Origin: a virus
Lineage: Duplodnaviria; Caudoviricetes
IMG/VR virus record: IMGVR_UViG_3300028048_000057
Coordinates: 64,001-128,000 of that record
Direction: 5' to 3' (one strand)
DNA: 64,000 nt
This document shows, piece after piece, positions 3,804 to 53,938 of the stretch. The notes beneath the pieces are model-generated. The model was given only the letters and a program-made list of their open reading frames with translations, had not been told where the DNA came from and did no database searches. The translations under genes were made by a program, and so were the position numbers. Position 1 is the stretch's first letter, and each line of letters starts with the position of its first letter.

Positions 3804-4637
3804 ATGGTTACAAAAGGTATAGTATTAGGTAGAAAACAAAATACAAATTTATACACTGTGAGAATTCCTTACTTTGAAAGTGCAGGAGGTTCTCAATGTA
3901 TTTTTGATGCTACTCTTTGTGCACCTCCAAATATTAGTGAAGCCTATAATGAAGGAGATGTTGTTCAAATTGCTTTTGAAGATAGACAAATGGACAGCCC
4001 TGTTATTATAGGGAAATTATTTACTTTAGATGAGAAAGAGGCTAGAGGATTTTCTAAAGTTCAAGCATTAGAAGTATCTAATAGTGCTTCTCTTCCATCT
4101 AATACTACTTTAGGTGGAGTTCCTTTAAAAAATATATTAGAAGTTATAGGAAAAGATTTAGATGAAGAAAATGATATTCCTCTAGAGGAGATGCCTACAA
4201 TTAGAGTTACTTCTTTATCTTATCCAAGTGAAGTAGTTAAATTTAATGAAGGTGATGTTGCTTACTTAAATGTTGTTGTAGAAGGCAATCTTAAGGTTGG
4301 AGATGAAATTACTATTTGTGAAAGAACAAAAAGTAAAGAAAATCCTAAAGGAACAAAAAGAGGAAGAGTAAGATATAGATATAAGACATTAAAATATATA
4401 ACTATAACTTCTCAAGATATTGGAAAAACAAGATTTAGTATACCTATTTATAATATTGAAGATGATAGATATGTGTTTAGTCATAATAATTCATCTACTC
4501 AAACAAGAGATACTTGGAGATATGTTAGAATAAGAAGAAAAATTCCATTTAAGTCTAATTGTAAATTTTCAAATATAGAAAGAATTTTAGTTATATATAG
4601 ATTTGATTCCAATAGATGTACATTAACTATTAACTAA
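3804..4637 (+). CDS. Baseplate spike (gpV/gp5 OB-fold) with a basic C-terminal extension
   Basis: VRIP...GDVVQIAFED...PVIIGKL N-terminal OB-fold pattern. Confidence 0.65.
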   Translation: MVTKGIVLGRKQNTNLYTVRIPYFESAGGSQCIFDATLCAPPNISEAYNEGDVVQIAFEDRQMDSPVIIGKLFTLDEKEARGFSKVQALEVSNSASLPSNTTLGGVPLKNILEVIGKDLDEENDIPLEEMPTIRVTSLSYPSEVVKFNEGDVAYLNVVVEGNLKVGDEITICERTKSKENPKGTKRGRVRYRYKTLKYITITSQDIGKTRFSIPIYNIEDDRYVFSHNNSSTQTRDTWRYVRIRRKIPFKSNCKFSNIERILVIYRFDSNRCTLTIN

Positions 4638-4715: not shown

Positions 4716-4789
4716 TAAACTATTAATTTATAATTAAAGTACATAAATAAATGCTAAATTTATTGACAAATATAATGGAGGAATGAGCC

Positions 4790-5166: not shown

Positions 5167-8100
5167 ATGATTAATGATAATGAGTTAATGATTAGTAATA
5201 AATCATATATAAATAAGGATTTTGCTACAATTTATCCTGAACTTTTAGACTATGTAAATATATTAACTAATAAATGGAATCCTCAAACTTCAAATGAAAG
5301 TGACCCAGGTGTTGTTCTTTTAAAATTAATGGGATTCATTGGAGACAAACTTAATTATAATTCAGATAAAAACATTTTAGAAGATTTTGCATTAAGTGCT
5401 ACTCAAGAATCTTCCATGAGAAAAATTTTATCTCCTTTAGGATATGATATGAAATATTATCATAGTGCTACAACAAAAGTACAATTTACTTTTATAGGAG
5501 ATGAACTAAATGATTCTAATGGAATAAACAAAAATATTAAGTTTCCAGCACTAGATACTATTATTACTAGTGATGATGAAAGTATTCAATTTGTACTTGT
5601 AAATTCACTTGAGTTGGATGCTAAAAATATTCCTAATTCTGCATTAGCCATTCAAGGGAGAAAAGAAACTTTAACTATTGGGGATAAAGATGTTATTTTA
5701 TTGGAAAACATTGATTCTAATAATAGAGTATATTTTCCAATACAAAGAGTTGCAGAAAATGGAGTATTTATTCATAGGGTAGATGATGATTCTAGATGGG
5801 AATGTATATCTAACTTAAATCTTTCTCCTATACATAGTGATGTTTTTGCTTTTGGTTATGATAGTGCTAGAGGACTTCCTTATGTAGAATTTCCAGATGA
5901 CATTGCAAATCTTATAGGAAATGGTCTACATATTGATTATATTATTACAGATGGTAGAGATGGAAATGTCAAGGCAAAATTCTTAACTAAATTAATTAAG
6001 CCTACTGAAATTCTTATTAATGGTACAGATGAAACTATTTCTTTTTCAGAAGATAACTCTAATTTATTAATTATTAAAAATTTAAGTGCTTCTATTGATG
6101 GTGCAGACCCAGAAACAATAGATGAAGCATACAATAATTTTAAGAAAACTATTGGTACTTTTGATACTTTAGTTACTTGTAGAGATTATGCTAATGCTAT
6201 TTATAGTATGTTAGATTTAGATACAGATTTAAATGTAGTTAGTAATGCTCAGGTAAGTGATAGAAGAGATGATTTTATGTATTCAACAAGAGTAGTTTCT
6301 TATGATACTTATGGTCAAAAAGTTACTAATGTAAAAAATAATATTAATAAAGATATTACAGCAAATGATTTATTCTTATATCCTTTATCTCCAGTAAGTT
6401 CATATACTATTGAAGGCTATACAGGTTCATTTAAACCTTTAAATAATGTTGCATATGTTGAAAGAAGATTAGAGAATTCTAAAACAGCATCTCATGATTT
6501 TTACCATCCTGTAGAAAGTGCTATTAGATTTTATGGACTTAAAAATTATCTTAAACTTAGTGCTCAAATTGCTACTACATATAAAGTAAATAATTATGAA
6601 AGAAAAGACATTATTTCTAATGTTATTAGTGCTTTAATTAAAAAATTTAATGCTAGAGAAGTAGATTATGGGTATGAAATTCCATATAATGAAATTCAAG
6701 ATACAATTTTAAATGCAGATTCTAGAATTACTTTTGTAAATTTACCAGACCCAACAATAACTACTAAAGTTTTATTTTCTAATGGAGATGAAAAAGCATT
6801 AATTTCTAGTGATGGACTTGATTATTTATTAACTTTAATGGCTCACAATATTTTATTAGGAAAAATTTCTTTGTTTGATTATGATGAAGATTTTAGTTAT
6901 GATTTTGGCCAAGAACAAATTAGTGGAAAGGCTATGAAACTTAAAGAACTTTCTACTATTAGTACAAAAACAGAAATTGAATTGGATTCAGGTTTAGAAG
7001 AAGAATTATTAGATAATGAAGTTATTCAAATGCTTGCTCCTTCTTTAATTACATCAAATAATTATTCATATGGTATTTATTATCATTTTACTAGTATTAA
7101 TTCAGTTCTAGAAAATACAAATTATAAATTAGGTTCTGGTGAAGAACTTTGGATAACTTATACTGATTCAGCAACTAAAAAAGTAATTACTAAAAAATTC
7201 ACAGAAGGTGAAATCATTCAACCTAAAGGGTTTACTTTAGTTCCTTCACAAGAGGGTAGAGGAGTTCAAAGAACTATTACATTTGAAGGACAGGAAGTTA
7301 CTTTATGGTTTGCTTCTTTAGGTGCTAGTGAAGAGATTGCTATTAGAAAAATTAATAAAACTACTTTTGGTAAACCTACTAATTTCTATTGGATTAGAAA
7401 TAATTCAGATAATCATTTATTTACTAGTGGAGATGCCATCATTAAGGATGATGTTGTGAAAGGTTATGAAACTATTTTAGGCGATGGTGAATATTTATTT
7501 TATACAGATGAAGGATTTAATAATCTTGTCTCATTAGGAAGTGGTACTACAATTTATACAAATAAATTAGATTTAGTTAATATTACTGCTAAAGTTGTTA
7601 CTTTTGAAGAAGTAATGGAAGAAGGTTTATTAGGACTTAAGGATAAATGGAATAAAATTAGTCTTACTAAAGAAAGTGTGCCATTAGGAGGTACTTATTT
7701 GTTAGTTCAAGAAAACACTATTTTAACTCTTACACAAGGGGATAAAATCACTTGGACTAAAGAAGAATCTAGTTTATCAAATACTATTACTTTAAATAAT
7801 ACATTACAACCAATTAGTGGTACAATTGAATATCAAATCAAAGGAGAACAACCTGATTTATTAGAGGGATACAACCTTGGAGAAGATTCAAAATGGAGAA
7901 TTAAATCTAGATACGATATTAATTGTGGTAGAAGTTTTGCACAATCTATAGGTGATGAGAGACAAACAGTTGTGTTTACAAATAAAGATAATTCTACCAT
8001 TTCTTTAGGTGGTGTAGGTGGAGTTGGACAAACCTTTAATTTAAATGAAGCATATCAATTTGCAGGAGCAGAAAGCATTGATGTGTCTTCTAAAGATGTT

Positions 8101-9051
8101 GTTACAGGAAATACATTCTACCCATTTAGTGTATATTGTTATGAATATCAACAAGTGGATGGCTCTAGTTTAGTTTTAGATAGAAATTCAGAAGGATATG
8201 TTGCCATTAAAGTAAAAAGTGGAGGAGATTTAAATGCAGATAAATTCTGTATGCCTAATATTGATGAATATAGTGTATTAATGGTTTATGCTACGATTAC
8301 ATCTAGTAATATTAAAATTAGAACATTTAATTATGTTGAAGATACCTTAATTGTAGATGCTACCACATTTGCTAGTGAGTTAAGTGATAAGGGTACATTA
8401 TATAAATTTGATTTAACCCAAGAGGAATATGTTAGTGTAACTACTTATGAAAATGATGTAACATATTATTATGTAGAAGGTTCAAACAAAAAGATTAGGC
8501 TTTACAATAGTGGTACTTCTTGGAGTGATGCTTCATCTACAATAGAAATCACTAAAGATGGAATTTATAATTTAGAGATTGAAAAAGGAACTACTGAAAT
8601 TTATATTTATAGTGACTACACTACTACAGGTAGTGATGAAGATGATGGATATAGTAAAAATACTTTAATATTAGATTATATAAAATATATTAATGGAATT
8701 GATTATGATAGTGAAATTGGGAAGAGATATGGTTTAAATCCACAAATAGGTTTAGAAAACATTACAGGAAATGATAAATCAGGAAAAACTATAACTCAAC
8801 TTGAAGAAGCATTATTAACAAAAATTAGAGATTTAGATAACCATAAAGAATCAGGTAGTTTATTAGTGTTAGACCCTCAATTCTACTACACTTGTAGAAT
8901 TCATAATTCAAATGTTATTGAATCTAAGGATTTAACTACTCCACAATCTTTATATGATATTAATAATTTTGCTAATAAGTTTGTCATTTCACAAATTGAT
9001 TTTGAAAAAATAAGTGATGATATAGATATATTAAGGAGTTCTAGATTATGA
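5167..9051 (+). CDS. Baseplate J / gp6-like wedge protein with a long C-terminal extension
   Basis: KDF..I..EL...W...NESDPGVVLL; GADPETIDE; LVT.RDY motifs. Confidence 0.8.
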   Translation: MINDNELMISNKSYINKDFATIYPELLDYVNILTNKWNPQTSNESDPGVVLLKLMGFIGDKLNYNSDKNILEDFALSATQESSMRKILSPLGYDMKYYHSATTKVQFTFIGDELNDSNGINKNIKFPALDTIITSDDESIQFVLVNSLELDAKNIPNSALAIQGRKETLTIGDKDVILLENIDSNNRVYFPIQRVAENGVFIHRVDDDSRWECISNLNLSPIHSDVFAFGYDSARGLPYVEFPDDIANLIGNGLHIDYIITDGRDGNVKAKFLTKLIKPTEILINGTDETISFSEDNSNLLIIKNLSASIDGADPETIDEAYNNFKKTIGTFDTLVTCRDYANAIYSMLDLDTDLNVVSNAQVSDRRDDFMYSTRVVSYDTYGQKVTNVKNNINKDITANDLFLYPLSPVSSYTIEGYTGSFKPLNNVAYVERRLENSKTASHDFYHPVESAIRFYGLKNYLKLSAQIATTYKVNNYERKDIISNVISALIKKFNAREVDYGYEIPYNEIQDTILNADSRITFVNLPDPTITTKVLFSNGDEKALISSDGLDYLLTLMAHNILLGKISLFDYDEDFSYDFGQEQISGKAMKLKELSTISTKTEIELDSGLEEELLDNEVIQMLAPSLITSNNYSYGIYYHFTSINSVLENTNYKLGSGEELWITYTDSATKKVITKKFTEGEIIQPKGFTLVPSQEGRGVQRTITFEGQEVTLWFASLGASEEIAIRKINKTTFGKPTNFYWIRNNSDNHLFTSGDAIIKDDVVKGYETILGDGEYLFYTDEGFNNLVSLGSGTTIYTNKLDLVNITAKVVTFEEVMEEGLLGLKDKWNKISLTKESVPLGGTYLLVQENTILTLTQGDKITWTKEESSLSNTITLNNTLQPISGTIEYQIKGEQPDLLEGYNLGEDSKWRIKSRYDINCGRSFAQSIGDERQTVVFTNKDNSTISLGGVGGVGQTFNLNEAYQFAGAESIDVSSKDVVTGNTFYPFSVYCYEYQQVDGSSLVLDRNSEGYVAIKVKSGGDLNADKFCMPNIDEYSVLMVYATITSSNIKIRTFNYVEDTLIVDATTFASELSDKGTLYKFDLTQEEYVSVTTYENDVTYYYVEGSNKKIRLYNSGTSWSDASSTIEITKDGIYNLEIEKGTTEIYIYSDYTTTGSDEDDGYSKNTLILDYIKYINGIDYDSEIGKRYGLNPQIGLENITGNDKSGKTITQLEEALLTKIRDLDNHKESGSLLVLDPQFYYTCRIHNSNVIESKDLTTPQSLYDINNFANKFVISQIDFEKISDDIDILRSSRL

Positions 9052-14369: not shown

Positions 14370-16283
14370 ATGGATGCTAAAACACTTGAAAAGAAATTAA
14401 ACTTTATTGATAAATATGCTAAAGCAAGTAATGCAGCAAGTGGAAGTGAATTTGATAGTAATGCTAATGTTGCTAGTATTAACCTTGCTACTCAAGAATG
14501 CGAATTAAGTAAAAAGGATTTTATTGATTTAAATAGAGCATTAGTAAAAAGATATTTACTAAAATTATATGGTGAAGAGGCTATTAATTATTTTGAACAA
14601 GATTTAAAAAATCATTTAATTTATGTACATGATGAATCTAGTTTAAAGCCTTATTGTGTTGCTTGTTCTTTATATCCTTTTTTATTAGATGGATTACAAG
14701 GATTAGGTGGTAGTGCAGGTGCACCAAAGCATGCAAATAGTTATATAGGTAGTTTGATTAATTTAGTATTTTTACTTGCTTCTCAATTTGCAGGAGCAGT
14801 TGCTATTCCAGAATTTTTAACTTATTTTGACCACTTCTTAAGATTAGATTATGGACAAGATTATGTTAAACATTTAGATGATATTGTAGAATCTATAGGA
14901 GAGCATAAATTTACTTTAAGACATAAGATTGAAGATTGGTTTCAACAATTTGTCTATAGTGTAAATCAACCTGCAGGGGCTAGAAATTATCAATCACCTT
15001 TTATTAATATTTCATATTTTGATAAAGGTTATTTTGAAAGTATATTCAAAGATTTCTTCTTTCCAGACTTTGATGAACCATGTTGGGAAACTACAAAAGA
15101 ACTTCAAAAGATGTTTATGAAATGGTTTAATAAAGAAAGAGAAAGAACAACAATTACTTTCCCAGTAGAATCTTTTAATCTTTTAGTAGATAAAGATACA
15201 CATAAGTATGTAGATGAAGAAAGTGCTGATTTTTGTGCAGAAATGCATTCAGAAGGACATTCATTCTTTATCTATCAAAGTGATAGTGCAGATTCATTAT
15301 CTTCTTGTTGTAGACTCAGAAATGGCATTGAAGAAAATGTATTTAGTACATCCATGGGTGCTGGTGGTATTATGACTGGTTCTAAAAAAGTCATTACATT
15401 AAATTTAAATAGAATTGTTCAAGATTGGTTTAATAAAGAAGTTAATGTTAAATATAAGAGAAATAGACAAACTCTTCCTGAGTATATTACTACAATAGTA
15501 AAAAGAGTTCATATGTATTTAAATGCTTGGAATGAGAAATTACATGAAGATTTCAATAATGATATGTTACCAGCATATAAAGCAGGATTCATTGATTTAG
15601 ATAAACAATTCTTAACAGTTGGAGTTAATGGATTTGTAGAGGCAGCAGAGTTCTTAAAAATTATGGGTGAATATGTCCCAGAATGTTACAAAGATATTGA
15701 AGTTAAACCAGAGAACAAAGCATATAGACAATTGGCAAAAGATATTTTAGGAACTATTGAAGATTTAAATAGAAAGAGTAGAGATGCTCATCATAAGTAT
15801 AACCTTGAATTTGTTCCAGGTGAAAATGCAAGTGCTAAGTTATATCAATGGGATAAGAGAGATGGTTATGTAGTCCCTAAAGGAAGAAATTTATATAATT
15901 CTTATTTCTATGTGGTTGAAGACACCACTATAGACCCAGTTAAAAAATTCTATTATCAAGGAGAAGGATTTGCTAGTGTATGTAGTGGAGGAGTGGCTTA
16001 TCACTGCAATTTAGATTCATTTTTATCTAAAAAAGTTTATAGAATGTTGATGGATGTTGCTGTTAAGGCAGGATGTAATTATTGGACCTATAATATTCCA
16101 GCAACAATATGTAATGATTGTGGATATAGAGATAAAAGATATTTGCATGTTTGTCCAAAATGTGGCTCTACAAATTTAGACTATGAAACAAGAATTATTG
16201 GATATTTGAGAAGAGTAAGCAATTTTAGTGAAGCAAGACAAGAAGAGGCTAAAAGAAGAGCCTATGGAAAGGTAGAAGAATAA
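14370..16283 (+). CDS. nrdD: Anaerobic (class III) ribonucleoside-triphosphate reductase
   Basis: IYVHD, PYC, SCCRL, C-terminal CNDC/CPKC and TRIIGY glycyl-radical motif. Confidence 0.95.
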   Translation: MDAKTLEKKLNFIDKYAKASNAASGSEFDSNANVASINLATQECELSKKDFIDLNRALVKRYLLKLYGEEAINYFEQDLKNHLIYVHDESSLKPYCVACSLYPFLLDGLQGLGGSAGAPKHANSYIGSLINLVFLLASQFAGAVAIPEFLTYFDHFLRLDYGQDYVKHLDDIVESIGEHKFTLRHKIEDWFQQFVYSVNQPAGARNYQSPFINISYFDKGYFESIFKDFFFPDFDEPCWETTKELQKMFMKWFNKERERTTITFPVESFNLLVDKDTHKYVDEESADFCAEMHSEGHSFFIYQSDSADSLSSCCRLRNGIEENVFSTSMGAGGIMTGSKKVITLNLNRIVQDWFNKEVNVKYKRNRQTLPEYITTIVKRVHMYLNAWNEKLHEDFNNDMLPAYKAGFIDLDKQFLTVGVNGFVEAAEFLKIMGEYVPECYKDIEVKPENKAYRQLAKDILGTIEDLNRKSRDAHHKYNLEFVPGENASAKLYQWDKRDGYVVPKGRNLYNSYFYVVEDTTIDPVKKFYYQGEGFASVCSGGVAYHCNLDSFLSKKVYRMLMDVAVKAGCNYWTYNIPATICNDCGYRDKRYLHVCPKCGSTNLDYETRIIGYLRRVSNFSEARQEEAKRRAYGKVEE

Positions 16284-20126: not shown

Positions 20127-20708
20127 ATGAAGAAGAATCTATTTATGTTAATCCCTCTTTTAGGATTAATGCTTGTTGGTTGTGGTTCTCAACCTAGTGT
20201 GCATACTCATACCATGACTCATGTTGCAGGTATTGAAGCAACATATACCACAGAAGGTGTTGTTGAACATGACCATTGTACAACATGTGAAAAAGATTTT
20301 GATGCTGATGGAAATGAATTAACTTCAGTAGTTATTCCAGAATTAGAATATTCTAAAACAGTTGATGCTGTTACTTCAGACATTCAAACTACCATTGGTT
20401 CTACAGCACAAGCATTTAATTTATCAAGTTATGCACCAGAAGGAGCCGATTTAACAAACACTCAAGCACCAGAAGATTTATTAGTTGTTCCAGTATCTAT
20501 TCTTTATTCAGTTATGCCAGAATACTTATCAGTAGCAAGTGCTCATTACTATACTACTGAAGAAGATTATTGGGAAGATGAATCAGGTGATACAGTTTAT
20601 TCATTATTGCTTGTTACACCAAGAACAGAAGTAGGTGTTGAAATTGTTGGCTATGTCTACAAAGATGCACTAGTAGGTCAATATAATGTTTTTGAACCAA
20701 AAATTTAA
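20127..20708 (+). CDS. Lipoprotein (start at MKKNLF)
   Basis: Signal peptide with LVGC lipobox; HTH...T.EG...C..C motif seen in Bacillota surface proteins. Confidence 0.75.
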   Translation: MKKNLFMLIPLLGLMLVGCGSQPSVHTHTMTHVAGIEATYTTEGVVEHDHCTTCEKDFDADGNELTSVVIPELEYSKTVDAVTSDIQTTIGSTAQAFNLSSYAPEGADLTNTQAPEDLLVVPVSILYSVMPEYLSVASAHYYTTEEDYWEDESGDTVYSLLLVTPRTEVGVEIVGYVYKDALVGQYNVFEPKI

Positions 20709-20750
20709 TAATTAATAATGCTAAATTATAAAGGAGAATTCCAAACAATT

Positions 20751-20849
20751 ATGAAAAATATTAATAGAGCAAATTTACAATTTACACTTCAACCACTTCC
20801 TTATTGGTATGGTGTTTTGTCTATGCTCTTAAAAGTAAGTAATAATTGA
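20751..20849 (+). CDS. Putative attenuator leader peptide (32 aa)
   Basis: MKNINRANLQFTLQPLPYWYGVLSMLLKVSNN*; AAGGAG at 20731-36; contains an antiterminator segment. Confidence 0.75.
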   Translation: MKNINRANLQFTLQPLPYWYGVLSMLLKVSNN

Positions 20850-20880
20850 AGTAATTCTTAATTAAATTTAAAAAACTTTG

Positions 20881-20911
20881 GGCAGCATAGACAACTATGT
20901 TGCCTTTTTTT
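20881..20911 (+). terminator. Attenuator terminator directly before the tRNA operon
   Basis: GGCAGCATAG-ACAA-CTATGTTGCC-TTTTTTT; 5' arm complementary to 20817-20827. Confidence 0.85.
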
Positions 20912-20914
20912 ATT

Positions 20915-20998
20915 GGGAAGGTAGGTAAGTGGCTAAAACCATCTGACTGTAAATCAGACGCTTAGGCTTCATGTGTTCGAATCACACCCTTCCCACCA
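20915..20998 (+). tRNA. tRNA-Tyr(GTA)
   Basis: Cloverleaf, long variable arm, encoded CCA. Confidence 0.95.
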
Positions 20999-21000
20999 AT

Positions 21001-21089
21001 GCTCCTATGTTGGAATTAGTAGACAACCTAGTTTGAGAGACTAGTGTCCATATAAGGGCGTGCAAGTGCAAGTCTTGCTAGGAGCACCA
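21001..21089 (+). tRNA. tRNA-Leu(GAG)
   Basis: Cloverleaf, long variable arm, T-loop TGCAAGT, CCA. Confidence 0.9.
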
Positions 21090-21093
21090 AAAT

Positions 21094-21170
21094 TGGGATG
21101 TAGACGAATTGGTAAAGTCAAGTGGCTTTGAACCACTTATGTGAGGGTTCGAGACCTTCCATCCCAGCCA
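21094..21170 (+). tRNA. tRNA-Gln(TTG)
   Basis: Cloverleaf, U1-A72, G73, CCA. Confidence 0.95.
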
Positions 21171-21172
21171 AT

Positions 21173-21246
21173 ATGGGTGTAGTTTAATGGCAGAACTATG
21201 GTCTCCAAAACCATTGATGAGAGTTCAATTCTTTCCACCCATGCCA
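21173..21246 (+). tRNA. tRNA-Trp(CCA)
   Basis: Cloverleaf, G73, CCA. Confidence 0.95.
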
Positions 21247-21250
21247 ATAT

Positions 21251-21324
21251 TGAGGGTTCTGTTAATGGTAGGCTTACGGCTTTGGAGACCGTGAATGGGG
21301 GTTCGATTCCCCCACCTTCAACCA
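21251..21324 (+). tRNA. tRNA-Pro(TGG), atypical
   Basis: Acceptor and T arms intact, CCA present; weak D stem; C-A mismatch closing the anticodon loop TTTGGAG. Confidence 0.7.
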
Positions 21325-21328
21325 TAAT

Positions 21329-21404
21329 GGGAGAGTGACCGAAGTAGTTAAGGTGCTGGTCTGAAAAACCAGATATGCTGGTGCGATTCCAACCTCTCCC
21401 ACCA
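21329..21404 (+). tRNA. tRNA-Phe(GAA)
   Basis: Cloverleaf, T-loop TGCGATT, CCA. Confidence 0.9.
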
Positions 21405-21440
21405 TTTATGCTAAATTTAAAGAAAAGAAGGAAAAATAAT

Positions 21441-30550: not shown

Positions 30551-31984
30551 ATGTTTTATTTAAATAAATTTATTAAGATTCCTAATAAAAGAGTAGAGGA
30601 TGCTCTTTTTTGGCTTTATCCTTATTTTAAAGATGCTAAAAAAGAACTATACCTTGTAGGTGGATGTGTTAGAGATATGCTCTTAGGTAAGGAACCTAAA
30701 GATTATGATTTTTGCACTAATGTATCTCCAGAAGAAGTTAAACAAATTTTAAGTAAAAATTCTAGATATAGTTTTATTGACACTGGATTAAAGCATGGTA
30801 CAATTACAGTTCATGATAAATGTTTAGATTTATTTTTTGAAATTACTACTTACAGAGTTGATGGTGCATATGAAGATAATAGACATCCAATTAAAGTTAG
30901 TTGGACTTCTAGTTTAGAAGAAGACCTTAGAAGGAGAGACTTTACTATTAATTCATTTGCATATGACCCTTTAGAAAAAGAATTGGTTATGTTAGATGAA
31001 ACTTATCTATATGACCTTAAATTAGGAATCATTAGATGTGTTGGAAATCCTATTGAAAGATTTAATGAAGATGCCTTAAGAATGCTTAGAGCAATTAGGT
31101 TTAGTGCTCAATTAGGGTTCACTATTGAGAAAGAAACTTATAATGCAATTATTCAAGGTGCTCCTCTTATTCAATACATATCTAAAGAAAGAATTAGAGA
31201 TGAATTAACTAAAATTCTTTTGAGTGATAATCCTCAAATGTTAGAATTGTTTAGTTTAACTACATTAGAACATCATGTATTTGAATCAAATACTCCTTAT
31301 ATTGAATCTATGTTACAATGTGAACATGAGAACCCATGGCATTATACAGATGTATTTCATCACACAATGGATGTAATTAAACATCTTCCAAAAGATTTTG
31401 ATTTAAGGTGGAGTGCTTTAATGCATGATATGGGAAAACCTAAAGTAAAGAAACAAAGACCACAAGGGCCTATTGGACACATGGTTTATTATGGGCACCC
31501 AGATATTTCAGAAAAGATTGCTTTAGAAATTATGGAAATTTTAAAATTCTCCAATGAATCTAAGGAAAAAATTAGAAAATTTGTTAAATATCATGACTAC
31601 CCTTTAGATGAAGTTAGTGATGTAAAATTTAAAAAGATGATTATTAATATTGGCCAAGATAATTTTATTGATTTTCTTAAATTAAGAGAAGCAGATGCTT
31701 TAGCACATAGATTACTTAAAAGCACACAATATATTATTGATGCACCAAGTATTGTTAAAGATAGATATATGAAAATAGTTATGAATAAAGAACCTTTAAC
31801 TTTAAAAGACCTTGTTATTAATGGGAATGATTTAAAGAAATTTAAAGTTAGTGGAATTCATATAGGTCAGTGTTTAAATAGATTATTAGATAGAGTTTTA
31901 GAAGACCCTGATTTAAATAAAAAAGAAACATTATTAAATATAGCCAAAAGTTACTTTTGGAAATTAGGTTTATTGGAGGATTAA
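30551..31984 (+). CDS. cca: CCA-adding tRNA nucleotidyltransferase with an HD domain
   Basis: VGGCVRD..LG..PKDYD, EITTYR, EDL.RRDFTIN, EDALRMLRAIRF, ERI..E, HD.GK. Confidence 0.9.
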   Translation: MFYLNKFIKIPNKRVEDALFWLYPYFKDAKKELYLVGGCVRDMLLGKEPKDYDFCTNVSPEEVKQILSKNSRYSFIDTGLKHGTITVHDKCLDLFFEITTYRVDGAYEDNRHPIKVSWTSSLEEDLRRRDFTINSFAYDPLEKELVMLDETYLYDLKLGIIRCVGNPIERFNEDALRMLRAIRFSAQLGFTIEKETYNAIIQGAPLIQYISKERIRDELTKILLSDNPQMLELFSLTTLEHHVFESNTPYIESMLQCEHENPWHYTDVFHHTMDVIKHLPKDFDLRWSALMHDMGKPKVKKQRPQGPIGHMVYYGHPDISEKIALEIMEILKFSNESKEKIRKFVKYHDYPLDEVSDVKFKKMIINIGQDNFIDFLKLREADALAHRLLKSTQYIIDAPSIVKDRYMKIVMNKEPLTLKDLVINGNDLKKFKVSGIHIGQCLNRLLDRVLEDPDLNKKETLLNIAKSYFWKLGLLED

Positions 31985-32249: not shown

Positions 32250-34514
32250 ATGAGAACCTTATTGTTAATGAGAGGTGCTCCAGGTGCTGGTAAGACTACT
32301 TGGATAAAAGAACATGGTTTAGAAAAATATGCACTATCACCAGATAATATGAGAGAACTTTGTAGTTCAGTTGAATTACAACCAACAGGTGAGTTTAAGA
32401 TTTCTCAAGCAAGAGATAATGAAAATGTTGTTTGGGATGTTCTTATGAAAGTTCTTGAACATAGAATGTCTAGAGGTGAGTTTACAGTTATTGATGCAAC
32501 TTGTTCTAAGACAAAGGATATGCAAAAATATAAAGACTTGGCTTCACAATATAGATATAGAATGTATGTGGTTGATTTCACAGACATCCCTTTAGAAACT
32601 TGTTTAGCCCAAAATAAAATGAGGGATGAAATTAAGCAAGTTCCATCTAATGCTATTAGAAATATTTATGCTAGGTTTGCTACTCAAAAAGTTCCTAGTG
32701 GTATTAACATTATTAAAAGAGATGAATTTGATACTTTACTAGAAACACCTATAGATTTAACTGAATATGAAAAGATTGTATTCATTGGAGACATCCATGG
32801 TTGCTTTGATACACTTATGCAATATGGTGATTTTAAGAATGGTTTAAATCCTCATTATGAATATATTTTCTTAGGTGATTTCTTAGATAGAGGAAATCAA
32901 AATGCAGAAGTTTTTAAATGGTTAGCCTCAATTAGAAATGAACCTAATGTTTGTTTTTTAGAAGGAAATCATGAAAGACACATTAGAGATTGGGGTAATG
33001 GTGTTCCAAGTGTTTCTCCAGAATTTGAAAGAAAAACAAAACCTCAATTAGAAAATGCTTGTATTGATAAAAAGGATGCAAGGGAACTCTATAGAAGATG
33101 TAGACAATTTTCACATTTCTATTATGGTAAAAATGAAATCATGGCTTGTCATGGTGGTATTCCAAACTTAAATACAAATTTACTTTATTTACCAAGTGAT
33201 TGTTTTATTCATGGTGTTGGTGAATATAAGGATTATATCACTATAGCAGAGTCTTGGATGGGTCAAACTAAACCTAACCAATATCTTGTCCATGGACATA
33301 GAAATACAGAGGGTTCAGACATTGATGTGTGTGATAGAGTCTTTAATCTTGAAGGTAGAGTTGAATTTGGTGGTCAATTAAGAATTGTTGAATTAACTTT
33401 AAATGAAGATGGAAAACCAATTTGGAATCCTATTTATTTAGATGATTGTCAACCAGTAAATCAACAACTTAATACAGAAGAAAGAAGAGTTGATACAATT
33501 GAAGATGCTATTAATTATTTAAGAAATAATAGATTTATTCAAGAAAAAGTATTAGGAGATGGAATCTCTTCCTTTAACTTTACAAGAGAAGCATTCTACA
33601 AAGGTAATTGGAATAAACAAACTGTTCTTGCTAGAGGTATCTTTATTGATACAATTAATAATAAAATCATGGCAAGAAGTTATGAGAAGTTCTTTAAGAT
33701 TAATGAAGTTCATCAAACAGAGATGGCATCATTAAGAAATTTATTACAATTCCCAGTTAAAGCCTATGTTAAGGAAAATGGATTTTTAGCCATTGTTTCT
33801 TATGATTATAGAAATGATGATTTATTTATTGCTTCTAAATCAACTAACAAAGGTGACTATGTTGAATATATTAAAAAGCAATTAGAGCCTTATAGAGAAA
33901 ATCTTCTAAACTATTTTAGAAAAGAGTATGACCATCTTTATAAAGACAGTAAAGAAGTGAGTGGTATATCCTTTGTATTTGAATGTATTGATATTGAAAA
34001 TGACCCACATATTATCAAATATGATTCAAGTAAAATTGTCTTATTAGACATTATTTATAATGAACTTAGTTATAGCACTTATGATTATAATTCCCTAGTT
34101 CAAATAGCATTATATTTAGGAAATTGTCCAGTTAAAGAAAAAGCATTTGAACTAAAAGATTGGGATGCTTTTAGAAGTCTCTACAATCAAGTTCAAGATG
34201 AAGAATATAAATATAATGGAAATTATATTGAAGGATTTGTATTTGTAGATTCTAATGGCTTTATGACCAAATGTAAAACAGGTTATTACAATCTTTGGAA
34301 AAAGATGAGAGGTGTTTGTGATACTACATTAAGATGTGGTTATATAACAAAAACAGGAATGTTAACTTCTTCTATTGAAAATTTATTTTATGGTTTTTGT
34401 AGAGAAATTTATAATAAATATTATGATAAGGATACTAAAGAATATCCATTTAAAACAGACATTATTTCAATGAGAGAAAGATTTATTGAACAAGGTATTG
34501 ACAAATTAAACTAA
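32250..34514 (+). CDS. Polynucleotide kinase-metallophosphoesterase-RNA ligase (Rnl1-like) fusion
   Basis: GAPGAGKT and IDAT; GDIHG/GDFLDRG/GNHE/HGH; ligase KFF, KENG, EGFV, KCK. Confidence 0.9.
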   Translation: MRTLLLMRGAPGAGKTTWIKEHGLEKYALSPDNMRELCSSVELQPTGEFKISQARDNENVVWDVLMKVLEHRMSRGEFTVIDATCSKTKDMQKYKDLASQYRYRMYVVDFTDIPLETCLAQNKMRDEIKQVPSNAIRNIYARFATQKVPSGINIIKRDEFDTLLETPIDLTEYEKIVFIGDIHGCFDTLMQYGDFKNGLNPHYEYIFLGDFLDRGNQNAEVFKWLASIRNEPNVCFLEGNHERHIRDWGNGVPSVSPEFERKTKPQLENACIDKKDARELYRRCRQFSHFYYGKNEIMACHGGIPNLNTNLLYLPSDCFIHGVGEYKDYITIAESWMGQTKPNQYLVHGHRNTEGSDIDVCDRVFNLEGRVEFGGQLRIVELTLNEDGKPIWNPIYLDDCQPVNQQLNTEERRVDTIEDAINYLRNNRFIQEKVLGDGISSFNFTREAFYKGNWNKQTVLARGIFIDTINNKIMARSYEKFFKINEVHQTEMASLRNLLQFPVKAYVKENGFLAIVSYDYRNDDLFIASKSTNKGDYVEYIKKQLEPYRENLLNYFRKEYDHLYKDSKEVSGISFVFECIDIENDPHIIKYDSSKIVLLDIIYNELSYSTYDYNSLVQIALYLGNCPVKEKAFELKDWDAFRSLYNQVQDEEYKYNGNYIEGFVFVDSNGFMTKCKTGYYNLWKKMRGVCDTTLRCGYITKTGMLTSSIENLFYGFCREIYNKYYDKDTKEYPFKTDIISMRERFIEQGIDKLN

Positions 34515-50613: not shown

Positions 50614-51783
50614 ATGTCAGATAATAAAAATTTACAAGAAATTTTAAAAGGGATTGAAAAATCTTATGGAAAAGGAATTACAACAGTTGGTGTTGGAGAT
50701 AGACCTAAGAAATCTTATTTCTCATTAGGAACCCCAGGATTTGATTTTTGTACTTACAATTCAATTCCAGAAGGTGTTTTCATTGAAGTACAAGGTCCAG
50801 AACAAAGTGGTAAAACTACTTGGGCTTGTTTAGCAGCAAGTAGTTTTATTAGAAATGAGAAAAAGAAACCAGTGGATGAAAGAAGAAAAATCTTATTTGT
50901 TGATGCAGAAGGTACAGCAGACCCAGATTGGATTTTAACTTCTACAGGATATAATATGAATGATGTAGATATTCAAACTATTTATCTTACACCATTAGGA
51001 CAAAGTGCAGAACAAATCTTTGATATGGTTATTGATTTAGTCAAAACAGGTGAAGTTGGTTTAGTTGTTTTTGATAGTTTAGTAGCAATTGCTCCTCAAC
51101 AAGTCAATGAAGAATCCATGGAAAAGAAAGATATGGGTGGATTAGCAAGTGTGCTTAAATACTTTGTTACAAAAGGAACAGGTGTATTTAATAGATACAA
51201 AACTACATTTATTGGAATTAATGGAACTACTATGAATTTAACTCCTTATGGAAATCCAGAAACATCCCCAGGAGGCACTTATTGGAAAAGAGCATGTTCA
51301 TTAAGATTAAAATTCAAAAGAGGAGAGTTCTTTGATGAAGATGGCAATACTCTTAAAGGAAGTGCAGAAAGTCCAGCAGGACATGTTATTGAAATGGCAG
51401 TACTTAAAACTAAGTTTTGTAGATGGGATAGAAAATTAGGTAGATGTCATTTAAACTATACAAAAGGTATTGATATTCTCCAAGATACCATTGAATTAGC
51501 ATGTAGAAGTGACTTTGATATAATTAGAGAACCTTCAAAAGGATGGTTTGTTGTAGTAGACCCAGATACAGGAGAGGCATTAACTGATAAAATTCATGGT
51601 ATTAATAATATTGCTCCTTTCTTTAAAGAACATGTTGATATTTGGAAAAAAGTATATGATAAGGTTTATGAAAAACTATCAATTAAAGATGACCCAAATA
51701 TTGTATCATTTGAAAAAATGTTAGGAGTTAATGTTAGTGAAGCATTTAATGTTGATTTTGTAAAAGAAGGAGAAGAACAATAA
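50614..51783 (+). CDS. recA: RecA-like recombinase
   Basis: GPEQSGKT, FVDAE, VVFDS, GNPET.PGG; GGAGG RBS before ATG 50614. Confidence 0.9.
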   Translation: MSDNKNLQEILKGIEKSYGKGITTVGVGDRPKKSYFSLGTPGFDFCTYNSIPEGVFIEVQGPEQSGKTTWACLAASSFIRNEKKKPVDERRKILFVDAEGTADPDWILTSTGYNMNDVDIQTIYLTPLGQSAEQIFDMVIDLVKTGEVGLVVFDSLVAIAPQQVNEESMEKKDMGGLASVLKYFVTKGTGVFNRYKTTFIGINGTTMNLTPYGNPETSPGGTYWKRACSLRLKFKRGEFFDEDGNTLKGSAESPAGHVIEMAVLKTKFCRWDRKLGRCHLNYTKGIDILQDTIELACRSDFDIIREPSKGWFVVVDPDTGEALTDKIHGINNIAPFFKEHVDIWKKVYDKVYEKLSIKDDPNIVSFEKMLGVNVSEAFNVDFVKEGEEQ

Positions 51784-53477: not shown

Positions 53478-53663
53478 ATGGCAGAACCAAAAGAAGTTAA
53501 AAAAGAAGTTAGTTCTACACCAGCAAAAGAGGAAAGTGTTGCTAAATCAGACTTTGACAGGGTTGTCAAAGAGTATGAAAAATTAGCCAATGCATTCAAT
53601 AGACTCTTAAAAGAGTATAATGAGTTGCATCTTAAAACTCTCTTTGTTGAAGAAACTAAATAA
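53478..53663 (+). CDS. Small coiled-coil protein
   Basis: AAGGA RBS. Confidence 0.55.
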   Translation: MAEPKEVKKEVSSTPAKEESVAKSDFDRVVKEYEKLANAFNRLLKEYNELHLKTLFVEETK

Positions 53664-53669
53664 TAACAT

Positions 53670-53695
53670 AAATGGTCTTAAACAAGACCATTTTT
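53670..53695 (+). terminator. Hairpin with a short T run before the second tRNA cluster
   Basis: AAATGGTCTT-AAAC-AAGACCATTT-TT. Confidence 0.55.
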
Positions 53696-53772
53696 GGACC
53701 CATATCTCAATTAGGTAGAGAAGTCGCCTCATAAGCGAATAGTTCTAGGTTCGAGTCCTGGTGGGTCCACCA
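53696..53772 (+). tRNA. tRNA with CAT anticodon, probably Ile2 (lysidine type)
   Basis: Cloverleaf; GGACCCA acceptor resembles Bacillota tRNA-Ile2; CCA. Confidence 0.85.
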
Positions 53773-53775
53773 TTT

Positions 53776-53862
53776 GGAGGGCTGTGATAATTGGTAGTCA
53801 GCCTGTCTTGAAAACAGGTGTGTCGTAAGGCATTTAGGGTTCGAGTCCCTAGCCCTCCGCCA
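53776..53862 (+). tRNA. tRNA-Ser(TGA)
   Basis: Cloverleaf, long variable arm, G73, CCA. Confidence 0.95.
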
Positions 53863-53865
53863 AAT

Positions 53866-53938
53866 CCCTGTATGGTTCGGTGACCAAGTGCGTCTCATAA
53901 GCGTATTAGCCTTAGTTCAACTCTAGGTGCAGGGACCA
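53866..53938 (+). tRNA. tRNA-Met-like (CAT) with an aberrant D arm
   Basis: Acceptor CCCTGTA/TGCAGGG, loop CTCATAA, T-loop TTCAACT, CCA; shortened D arm. Confidence 0.7.

Follow-up and report, generated by a model that had tools for sequence, protein, structure and literature searches.

When does a phage make the tRNAs that it encodes itself? The question is raised by the stretch of 64,000 nucleotides analysed here (the window, bases 64001-128000 of the Caudoviricetes record IMGVR_UViG_3300028048_000057), in which a 32-codon open reading frame (ORF) and a terminator stand directly before six tRNA genes. Phage tRNA genes have been known for decades, and recent work ties them to codon supply and to the escape from tRNA-cleaving defences. 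To our knowledge, the control of their expression has received little attention, and as a rule they are regarded as constitutive passengers. The codons of the short ORF and the predicted RNA structures point, with a probability of roughly 75%, to a ribosome-mediated leader-peptide transcription attenuator that gates this tRNA array. The phage probably makes these tRNAs only when ribosomes read the sensor codons of the leader slowly. The elements are located as follows (window positions).

20720..20727 (+): GCTAAATT motif, a putative phage promoter-like or 5'-end-defining element, opening the leader/tRNA module
20732..20736 (+): AGGAG, Shine-Dalgarno (SD)-like, 14 nt before the leader ATG, read from the sequence
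20751..20849 (+): leader ORF, ATG at 20751 and TGA at 20847-49, 32 sense codons = MKNINRANLQFTLQPLPYWYGVLSMLLKVSNN
20766..20795 (+): region 1, predicted 5' strand of the 1:2 hairpin (AGAGCA, ACAA, ACACT, CCAC) from minimum-energy folds, overlapping the sensor codons
20778..20810 (+): sensor run, codons 10-20 (QFTLQPLPYWY), 10 of 11 cognate to the six array tRNAs
20817..20833 (+): region 2, pairing with region 1 or region 3 (antiterminator 5' strand), core TTGTCTATGCT at 20817-27
20878..20894 (+): region 3, 5' arm and loop of the terminator, complementary to region 2
20880..20911 (+): intrinsic terminator, stem 20880-20905 with 11 pairs and a 4-nt loop (-15.6 kcal/mol), run of seven T at 20905-20911
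20915..21404 (+): tRNA array Tyr(GTA)-Leu(GAG)-Gln(TTG)-Trp(CCA)-Pro(TGG)-Phe(GAA), found by ARAGORN, the regulated genes in the proposed reading
21410..21417 (+): next GCTAAATT motif, after tRNA-Phe, opening the unit of a class-3 lipase-like gene and marking the end of the module

The source contig has 161,442 bp and 29% G+C, carries nearly all of its genes on the + strand and contains 24 tRNA genes. ARAGORN returned the same six tRNAs, in the same order and with the same anticodons, as a preliminary description of this locus had listed; they are spaced by 2-4 nt and their CCA ends are encoded. The 32-codon ORF proposed there also holds in coordinates and codon count. A 43-codon frame from the ATG at 20718 was rejected as the functional ORF: its ATG overlaps the GCTAAATT motif, and the added N-terminal codons vary among relatives (GEFQTI, GDTKII, GDTQII) with an invariant 32-codon part. 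The strong terminator placed at 20881-20911 in the preliminary description was recovered with its stem at 20880-20905. Between its T-run and the start of tRNA-Tyr (20915) lie only 3 nt, which is too small a gap for a promoter, so that the separate promoter named there as incompatible with attenuation does not fit.

The central observation concerns the codons. Codons 10-20 of the leader read CAA TTT ACA CTT CAA CCA CTT CCT TAT TGG TAT, exactly as described before, and all six tRNAs of the array are represented. We defined the cognate set as the 13 codons readable by the six anticodons and counted these codons in all 11-codon windows of the genome, in each frame. On the + strand (three frames, 161,442 bp) no window but that of the leader has 10 or more cognate codons with all six kinds, and no other one there reaches even nine with six kinds. 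Adjusted for a search of 300 nt upstream, the match has p = 0.0014; it exceeds chance. Leucine is written as CTT in the sensor run, and TTA had been called the usual codon of the genome; in the long ORFs, 64% of the Leu codons are indeed TTA and 21% CTT.

The second line of evidence is the RNA structure. Both pairings given in the preliminary description were confirmed exactly. Positions 20817-27 are the exact complement of 20884-94, giving 11 perfect pairs that can be extended to about 17, and 20766-71 pairs with 20824-29 in the minimum-energy fold (z = -3.8). The folding of both conformers, which had been suggested as a check, thus gave a minimum-energy fold that holds the 1:2 hairpin together with the terminator, and an alternative duplex of regions 2 and 3 of -18.7 to -19.8 kcal/mol. 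A duplex of -18.7 kcal/mol was matched by only 1 of 2000 dinucleotide shuffles of the upstream 132 nt. Among the 14 terminators called in the genome, this one ranks first in the duplex formed with the terminator 5' half. An Rfam scan of 20650-20930 with E up to 10 gave no T-box match and no family at its gathering score.

To place the leader in an evolutionary context, relatives were needed. Megablast of public phage records gave no close relative and blastn only matches to single tRNAs; scans of IMG/VR and JGI with leader patterns, tRNA-Leu patterns and the upstream 664-aa protein found none either. A search with the lipase-like protein led to three distant phages (G001-G003). The informative relatives came from a protein collection, first via the leader peptide and then via the 664-aa protein. 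The leader peptide matches four near-identical proteins and led, together with the upstream lipoprotein, to the loci L007-L010 and L033. A profile of the 32 residues run against 1.84 billion proteins returned the leader of L010 itself (P0002) and one new leader homologue, P0130.

Comparison of the window with L033 reveals a sharply bounded island of conservation. The lipoprotein gene is 80% identical, the spacer between SD and ATG 68%, the spacer after the stop codon 70% and tRNA-Tyr 67%; the leader ORF is identical in 99 of 99 nt. The ORF therefore shows no mismatch versus 21 in 106 adjacent non-coding positions (Fisher p = 4e-7), and the island begins at the leader ATG. In the flanking genes, synonymous changes are found at 22% of the conserved residues; given this divergence, the lack of any synonymous change in 32 leader codons has p = 4e-4. 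Recent recombination is an unlikely cause of the identity: both breakpoints would be needed at the ends of the ORF, and tRNA-Tyr is only 67% identical. In L010 an insertion of 1 nt after region 2 rewrites the tail of the peptide (LKVSNN to SETR) and moves the stop two codons upstream, so that the C-terminal peptide is not what is conserved.

The borders of the module are also indicated by the relatives. Similarity of the window to L007-L009 and L033, where the upstream gene is different, starts at the GCTAAATT motif, and the motif is found at the same place in L036, L037 and L042 (see below). The + strand of the whole genome carries 29 copies and the - strand a single one; most are intergenic, and the motif is often extended to GCTAAATTTATTGATAAA. 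Copies in the window include those at 4753, 20720, 21410 and 44937. Most copies shortly precede an SD and a start codon, and several directly follow a terminator T-run or a tRNA. The motif looks like a phage-specific promoter or a 5'-end/processing signal. Since similarity begins at one motif and the next follows tRNA-Phe, the module consists of motif, SD, ORF, terminator and six tRNAs, with entry to the tRNAs only through the terminator. The class-3 lipase-like gene after the array belongs to Pfam Lipase_3 (E = 9e-15).

A stronger test of codon matching is offered by loci with other arrays, as had been proposed for related phages. The upstream 664-aa protein has more than 600 homologues. In L036, L037 and L038, with homologues of 88%, 69% and 64% identity, the order of 664-aa gene, leader, array and lipase is kept; in three further loci the layout is absent or a promoter lies between terminator and tRNAs. 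An ATG-to-TGA leader ORF of 26-33 codons is present in every lineage. The most informative leaders are the following.

L037: array Phe, Leu(GAG), Leu(TAG), Tyr, Leu(CAA), Gln, Trp, Pro; run QQYTLQPWFYP, 10 of 11 cognate, adjusted p = 0.007
L042: array Tyr, Trp, Leu(GAG), Pro, then the contig end; run QFQLQPLPYWY, 11 of 11 cognate
L038: array Leu(TAG), Leu(TAA) twice, Leu(CAA), Pro, a tRNA-like spacer of 143 nt, Val(TAC), Val(GAC), Phe; run LFVLLPLPVVF, 11 of 11 cognate

The leader ORF of L037, MKAVRKALTQQYTLQPWFYPHGLLSMPSFACK, keeps the amino-acid set of the window leader in a changed order. L042, which has a higher G+C content and was found by the profile search, differs by five synonymous changes that are all cognate, and its leucine codons stay CTT or CTC. 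In L038 the run lies within MTRNVTLFVLLPLPVVFTTILSVLSN, and the whole ORF is free of Gln, Trp and Tyr codons. Its first 21 codons contain four Val codons, and leucine is written as TTA, TTG, TTA and CTT, compared to CTT only in the run of the window. No second 11-codon window of the L038 type occurs in 80 kb of related loci, and the 161-kb genome has none; the match in L038 has p about 0.002. When all leaders were scored against all arrays, 10-11 of 11 codons were cognate to the array of the own type and 5-6 of 11 to the other type. The leucine codons thus change from CTT to TTA or TTG where Leu(TAA/CAA/TAG) tRNAs replace tRNA-Leu(GAG). The independent evidence consists of the original match, the match in L038 and these codon-level details.

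Covariation was assessed in an alignment of six sequences (A3), in which region 2 is nearly invariant. The terminator is paired in all cells, always with a U-tract; four pairs are changed on both sides, and its covariation score was reached by none of 500 shuffles. The antiterminator is paired in 97% of the cells with two compensated pairs, A-U to G-C in L038 and U-A to C-G in L037; its score was reached by 16 of 500 shuffles and by no slid control. In L037, base 20884 is changed along with both of its alternative partners, 20827 in region 2 and 20901 in region 4, a pattern that is expected for a base common to two exclusive helices. In L037 and L038, most of the bases that complement region 2 fall within the terminator loop, which is otherwise free to drift. 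The 2:3 duplex reaches significance in the window and L036; in L037 and L038, at homologous codons, it is marginal. All five lineages (the window, L036, L037, L038 and L042) have a predicted hairpin of the 1:2 type, formed by region 2 and early codons around the run. It uses different bases in each lineage, with poor pair-by-pair homology in L038.

The position of the ribosome was modelled by masking a 29-nt footprint codon by codon and folding the transcript up to the terminator loop, that is, before region 4. In the model, regions 2 and 3 stay paired as long as the A-site codon is 1-19 in the window and L037, or 1-17 or 18 in L038; beyond that the pairing is lost. The cognate runs end at codons 20, 20 and 17, respectively. 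Because the limit of pairing and the end of the run coincide, the run appears to occupy just those codons at which stalling would release region 2. When the full leader was folded at equilibrium with a ribosome masked, the terminator was always kept, as would be expected for a kinetic switch. The spacer between stop codon and terminator measures 22-42 nt across the leaders. An E. coli terminator is fully functional at least 30 bp from a stop codon (PMC4824070); judged by these data, a terminating ribosome should not repress the terminator.

These data can be combined to the following mechanism. Transcription would enter at or before the GCTAAATT motif, and a ribosome would start on the 32-codon ORF, where its reading speed at codons 10-19 would decide the outcome. 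If aminoacyl-tRNA for Gln, Phe, Leu(CUY), Pro, Tyr or Trp is scarce, the ribosome would stall within these codons, melt the 1:2 hairpin and leave region 2 (20817-33) uncovered. Region 2 could then pair with the emerging region 3 (20878-94), the terminator would not be nucleated, and RNA polymerase would read into the six tRNA genes; RNase P would cut out tRNA-Tyr a few nt after the U-tract. With fast decoding the ribosome would cover region 2 (A-site codons 20-30), or would pass so that 1:2 re-forms; regions 3 and 4 would then fold as the terminator and the transcript would end at 20911. The outcome would be a negative feedback that keeps just these decoders in supply. We infer the translation of the ORF, the role of stalling in deciding the fold and the variation of read-through with tRNA supply. 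The attenuator interpretation of the preliminary description is supported, at the level of sequence, by codons that track the array, by compensated terminator and antiterminator helices and by the predicted 1:2 hairpin in five lineages.

Several findings weigh against this reading. None of the other nine tRNA units of the genome has a codon-matched leader by the same statistic, and the tRNA units of G001-G003 lack one as well; with only one of about ten units matched here and none in three distant relatives, the design is not general for the tRNAs of this phage. The leaders are homologous, so that their matches are not all independent, and the change of array type is essentially one event (L038 versus the rest). 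The representation of all six tRNAs, true for the window leader, does not stand as a rule: the leader of L010 has no Phe codon though tRNA-Phe is kept. L033, L010 and L036 carry an extra Leu(TAG) and a second Pro tRNA without a dedicated leader codon. In L042 the best duplex is neither significant nor located at the homologous place, and the antiterminator is weak there.

The remaining points on the same side concern initiation and kinetics. The distance from AGGAG to the start codon is mostly 8-11 nt in this genome and at least 14 nt in about 15% of cases; with 14 nt in the window and 17 nt in L033 (6 nt in L042), the leader falls at the long end of the range. If GCTAAATT is a -10-like element, the AGGAG might even fall outside the transcript. 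At the stage before region 4, equilibrium favours the 2:3 pairing even without a ribosome, so that the off state has to come from kinetics or from ribosomes over region 2. Furthermore, the leader stop codon is placed 18 nt beyond region 2, and a ribosome standing there would leave region 2 exposed behind it, unlike in trpL. The 1:2/2:3/3:4 layout of the trp and his attenuators, to which the locus had been assigned, is found as far as the predicted overlapping helices are concerned; because of the stop codon the likeness to trp is inexact.

Among the alternatives, the one that survives best retains the ORF as a sensor of decoding speed and changes the output: precursor processing or stability (RNase P/RNase E), Rho loading or translation of the peptide, with the hairpin mainly a stabiliser of a 3' end. 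The position of the stop codon, unlike that of classical attenuators, would suit this account, as would a second codon-matched ORF in L038 that meets a Lys-Lys-Cys-Arg block without a terminator and a sigma-70-like promoter between terminator and tRNAs in L043. We regard it as unlikely nonetheless. The hairpin has all features of an intrinsic terminator with a U-tract that is always present, the conserved complementarity between region 2 and the terminator 5' half is what an antiterminator requires, and the modelled stall window coincides with the run.

Somewhat less probable still is a translation-independent RNA switch, in which the leader RNA binds a protein or uncharged tRNAs in a T-box-like manner and the reading frame is incidental. 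Conservation at the nucleotide level, poor and variable SD spacing, and three helices that exist with or without translation agree with it. It does not account for a cognate run that occurs only in the frame of the ORF, between start and stop in every lineage, nor for a conservation island that starts at the ATG. L042 keeps the codon set through synonymous changes, unlike what selection on RNA sequence would give; no T-box or other Rfam family was found at threshold, and a T-box reads one specifier codon, not eleven.

The weakest alternative, an ordinary small phage protein (perhaps hydrophobic or aromatic) before a leaky terminator with constitutive read-through and a coincidental codon match, can draw on small ORFs with a terminator abutting tRNAs that lack a codon match at Met-Ser-Met (53696) and Glu, and on the core LQPLPYWYG, conserved in L042 through synonymous changes as under selection on the decoded sequence and not on nucleotides alone, but is very improbable since the match is unique in the genome and recurs with another composition against another array in L038 (p about 0.002), L037 keeps the composition of the peptide in a scrambled order, the C-terminal tail is frameshifted in L010, synonymous changes versus L033 are missing despite diverged flanks, and the terminator loop stays complementary to the ORF.

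The attenuator reading can be compared with known systems, for which a general theory is available (PMC1183508). Closest are the multivalent enterobacterial leaders of thrL (Thr, Ile), ilvGMEDA (Leu, Val, Ile; also 32 codons) and ilvBN. They share a short ORF with clustered codons for several amino acids, the 1:2/2:3/3:4 helices, a terminator directly before the regulated genes and read-through as readout. Those leaders control biosynthetic enzymes, whereas the phage leader would control the tRNAs that decode its sensor codons. It further differs in sampling six amino acids, in synonymous codons that follow the anticodons (CTY versus TTR for Leu), in being viral and in its stop 18 nt past region 2. 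The leaders trpL, hisL, pheL and leuL resemble it in mechanism, layout and the predicted default of termination when translation is unhindered. In contrast, they sense one amino acid via tandem identical codons, and a ribosome at the stop masks region 2. A sequence or family relationship to them is not found; no such Rfam leader reaches threshold on 20650-20930.

The leader attenuator of pheST (pheM) controls phenylalanyl-tRNA synthetase in cells and responds to one amino acid. It is similar to the phage case as a leader-peptide attenuator with an output in the decoding machinery, and different in that this output is a synthetase and not tRNAs. The T-boxes of Firmicutes also let tRNA supply choose between terminator and antiterminator before translation-related genes; they bind uncharged tRNA directly via a specifier codon and a T-box motif, without a ribosome. 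The mechanism proposed here is classical leader-peptide attenuation; what differs is its target, how many amino acids it would sample, the way synonymous codons follow the anticodons, and the viral setting. In line with the earlier remark that no multiplexed attenuator of a phage tRNA operon had been described, full-text literature searches found no account of phage tRNA genes under the control of an attenuator or a leader peptide.

If the reading is true, the leader would feed back directly on decoding capacity, and it would be the first attenuator known to us whose product is the molecule sensed. The trp/his paradigm would then reach viruses and a new kind of target. The leader would also provide a sequence signature for regulated tRNA operons in metagenomes and offer a compact natural reporter of several tRNAs at once. 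The series of relatives, with different leaders before different arrays at the same position, makes the idea testable.

A possible purpose is suggested by genes in the neighbourhood of the array.

window 30551-31984: CCA-adding enzyme
window 32250-34514: single-chain polynucleotide kinase-phosphatase-RNA ligase (PHROG 8238, E = 1e-200)

The two form a tRNA repair set within 14 kb of the array. Three papers on tRNA function (PMC10264068, PMC11555353, PMC11464382) describe phage tRNA arrays as replacing host tRNAs that are depleted or cleaved by defences; the repair enzymes of the present phage are a point of likeness to the systems treated there. Tentatively, the leader might be a multiplex sensor of the tRNA pool, and the array a damage-inducible replacement operon against an anticodon nuclease or a tRNA-depleting defence that acts together with the repair enzymes. 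A host defence that removes any of the decoders would then cause a stall on the leader and switch on nuclease-resistant tRNA copies; such leaders may even be general in large phages. We consider this wider proposal doubtful. The link to anticodon-nuclease defences drawn in the preliminary description is circumstantial only; the repair enzymes are encoded in the same window.

Further tRNA units were inspected for similar arrangements. At G000:C1:140878-141158, about 12.9 kb past the end of the window, a GCTAAATT motif, a 35-codon ORF and a terminator precede tRNA-Glu(TTC). The complement of the terminator 5' half lies inside the ORF (-16.8 kcal/mol, reached by 0 of 2000 shuffles). As a second attenuator the unit was rejected: Glu codons are not enriched (3 of 11, p = 0.05). 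At window 53660-53938 a terminator adjoins tRNA-Met-Ser-Met after a 72-codon ORF, with neither an antiterminator complement nor a codon match; because of this unit, the adjacency of terminator and tRNA cannot by itself be taken to indicate attenuation in this phage.

In L038, at 4193-4260, the ORF MRNYFEKLKNKRKRFFKRSFRC runs directly into tRNA-Lys(CTT)-Lys(TTT)-Cys-Arg(ACG) with no terminator between. Seven of 11 codons are cognate (adjusted p = 0.04), and the ORF may be a different kind of codon-matched leader. In L043, the codons GGA TTA TCA ATA AGA (6401-6415) match, by exact Watson-Crick pairing, five of the six downstream tRNAs (Gly, Leu, Ser, Ile, Arg). This GLSIR stretch belongs to a 42-codon ORF that is followed by a terminator, a sigma-70-like promoter and the tRNAs. 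It was not retained as a second attenuator, being marginal with an adjusted p = 0.03 on a window chosen after the fact.

Caulobacter phage phiCbK (L035, JX100813) represents a modest case with a cognate-run statistic of 8 of 11 for its own array (adjusted p = 0.03). In its genome paper the words 'attenuat' and 'leader' are absent. As a cultured system, it is one in which the leader idea is testable. Its unit is arranged as follows (record positions).

51290-51640: stretch inspected, with a sigma-70-type promoter TTGACA-N17-TAGGGT and a leaderless 32-codon ORF MSKTYRQFVRQIQVV..., run YRQFVRQIQVV
51341-51439: leader ORF
51465-51502: annotated terminator, followed by an unannotated tRNA-like sequence with anticodon GTA and then Phe-Val-Ile-Ile-Val-Gln-Gln

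Several minor observations were made along the way. With default settings ARAGORN misses tRNA-Tyr(GTA) or tRNA-Phe(GAA) at L010:235-320, L036:8472-8557 and L037:7210-7284 and 7505-7590; a relaxed threshold finds them. Rfam gives 25-49 bits where it reports them, and the Tyr genes of L036 and L037 are not reported. These are unusual or decaying tRNAs. Repeats of the type AGAACYTRTRCTTATTTC, whose tails look like a T-arm and CCA end, occur between the 664-aa gene and the leader and also inside the array of L038 (L036:7984-8260; L037:6747-7000; L038:7969-8160 and 8743-8885; L043:5990-6250). A weak match to Rfam YrlA (Y RNA-like) was found at L038:2814-2873. Finally, an anaerobic ribonucleotide reductase is encoded at window 14370-16283, which points to an anaerobic host.

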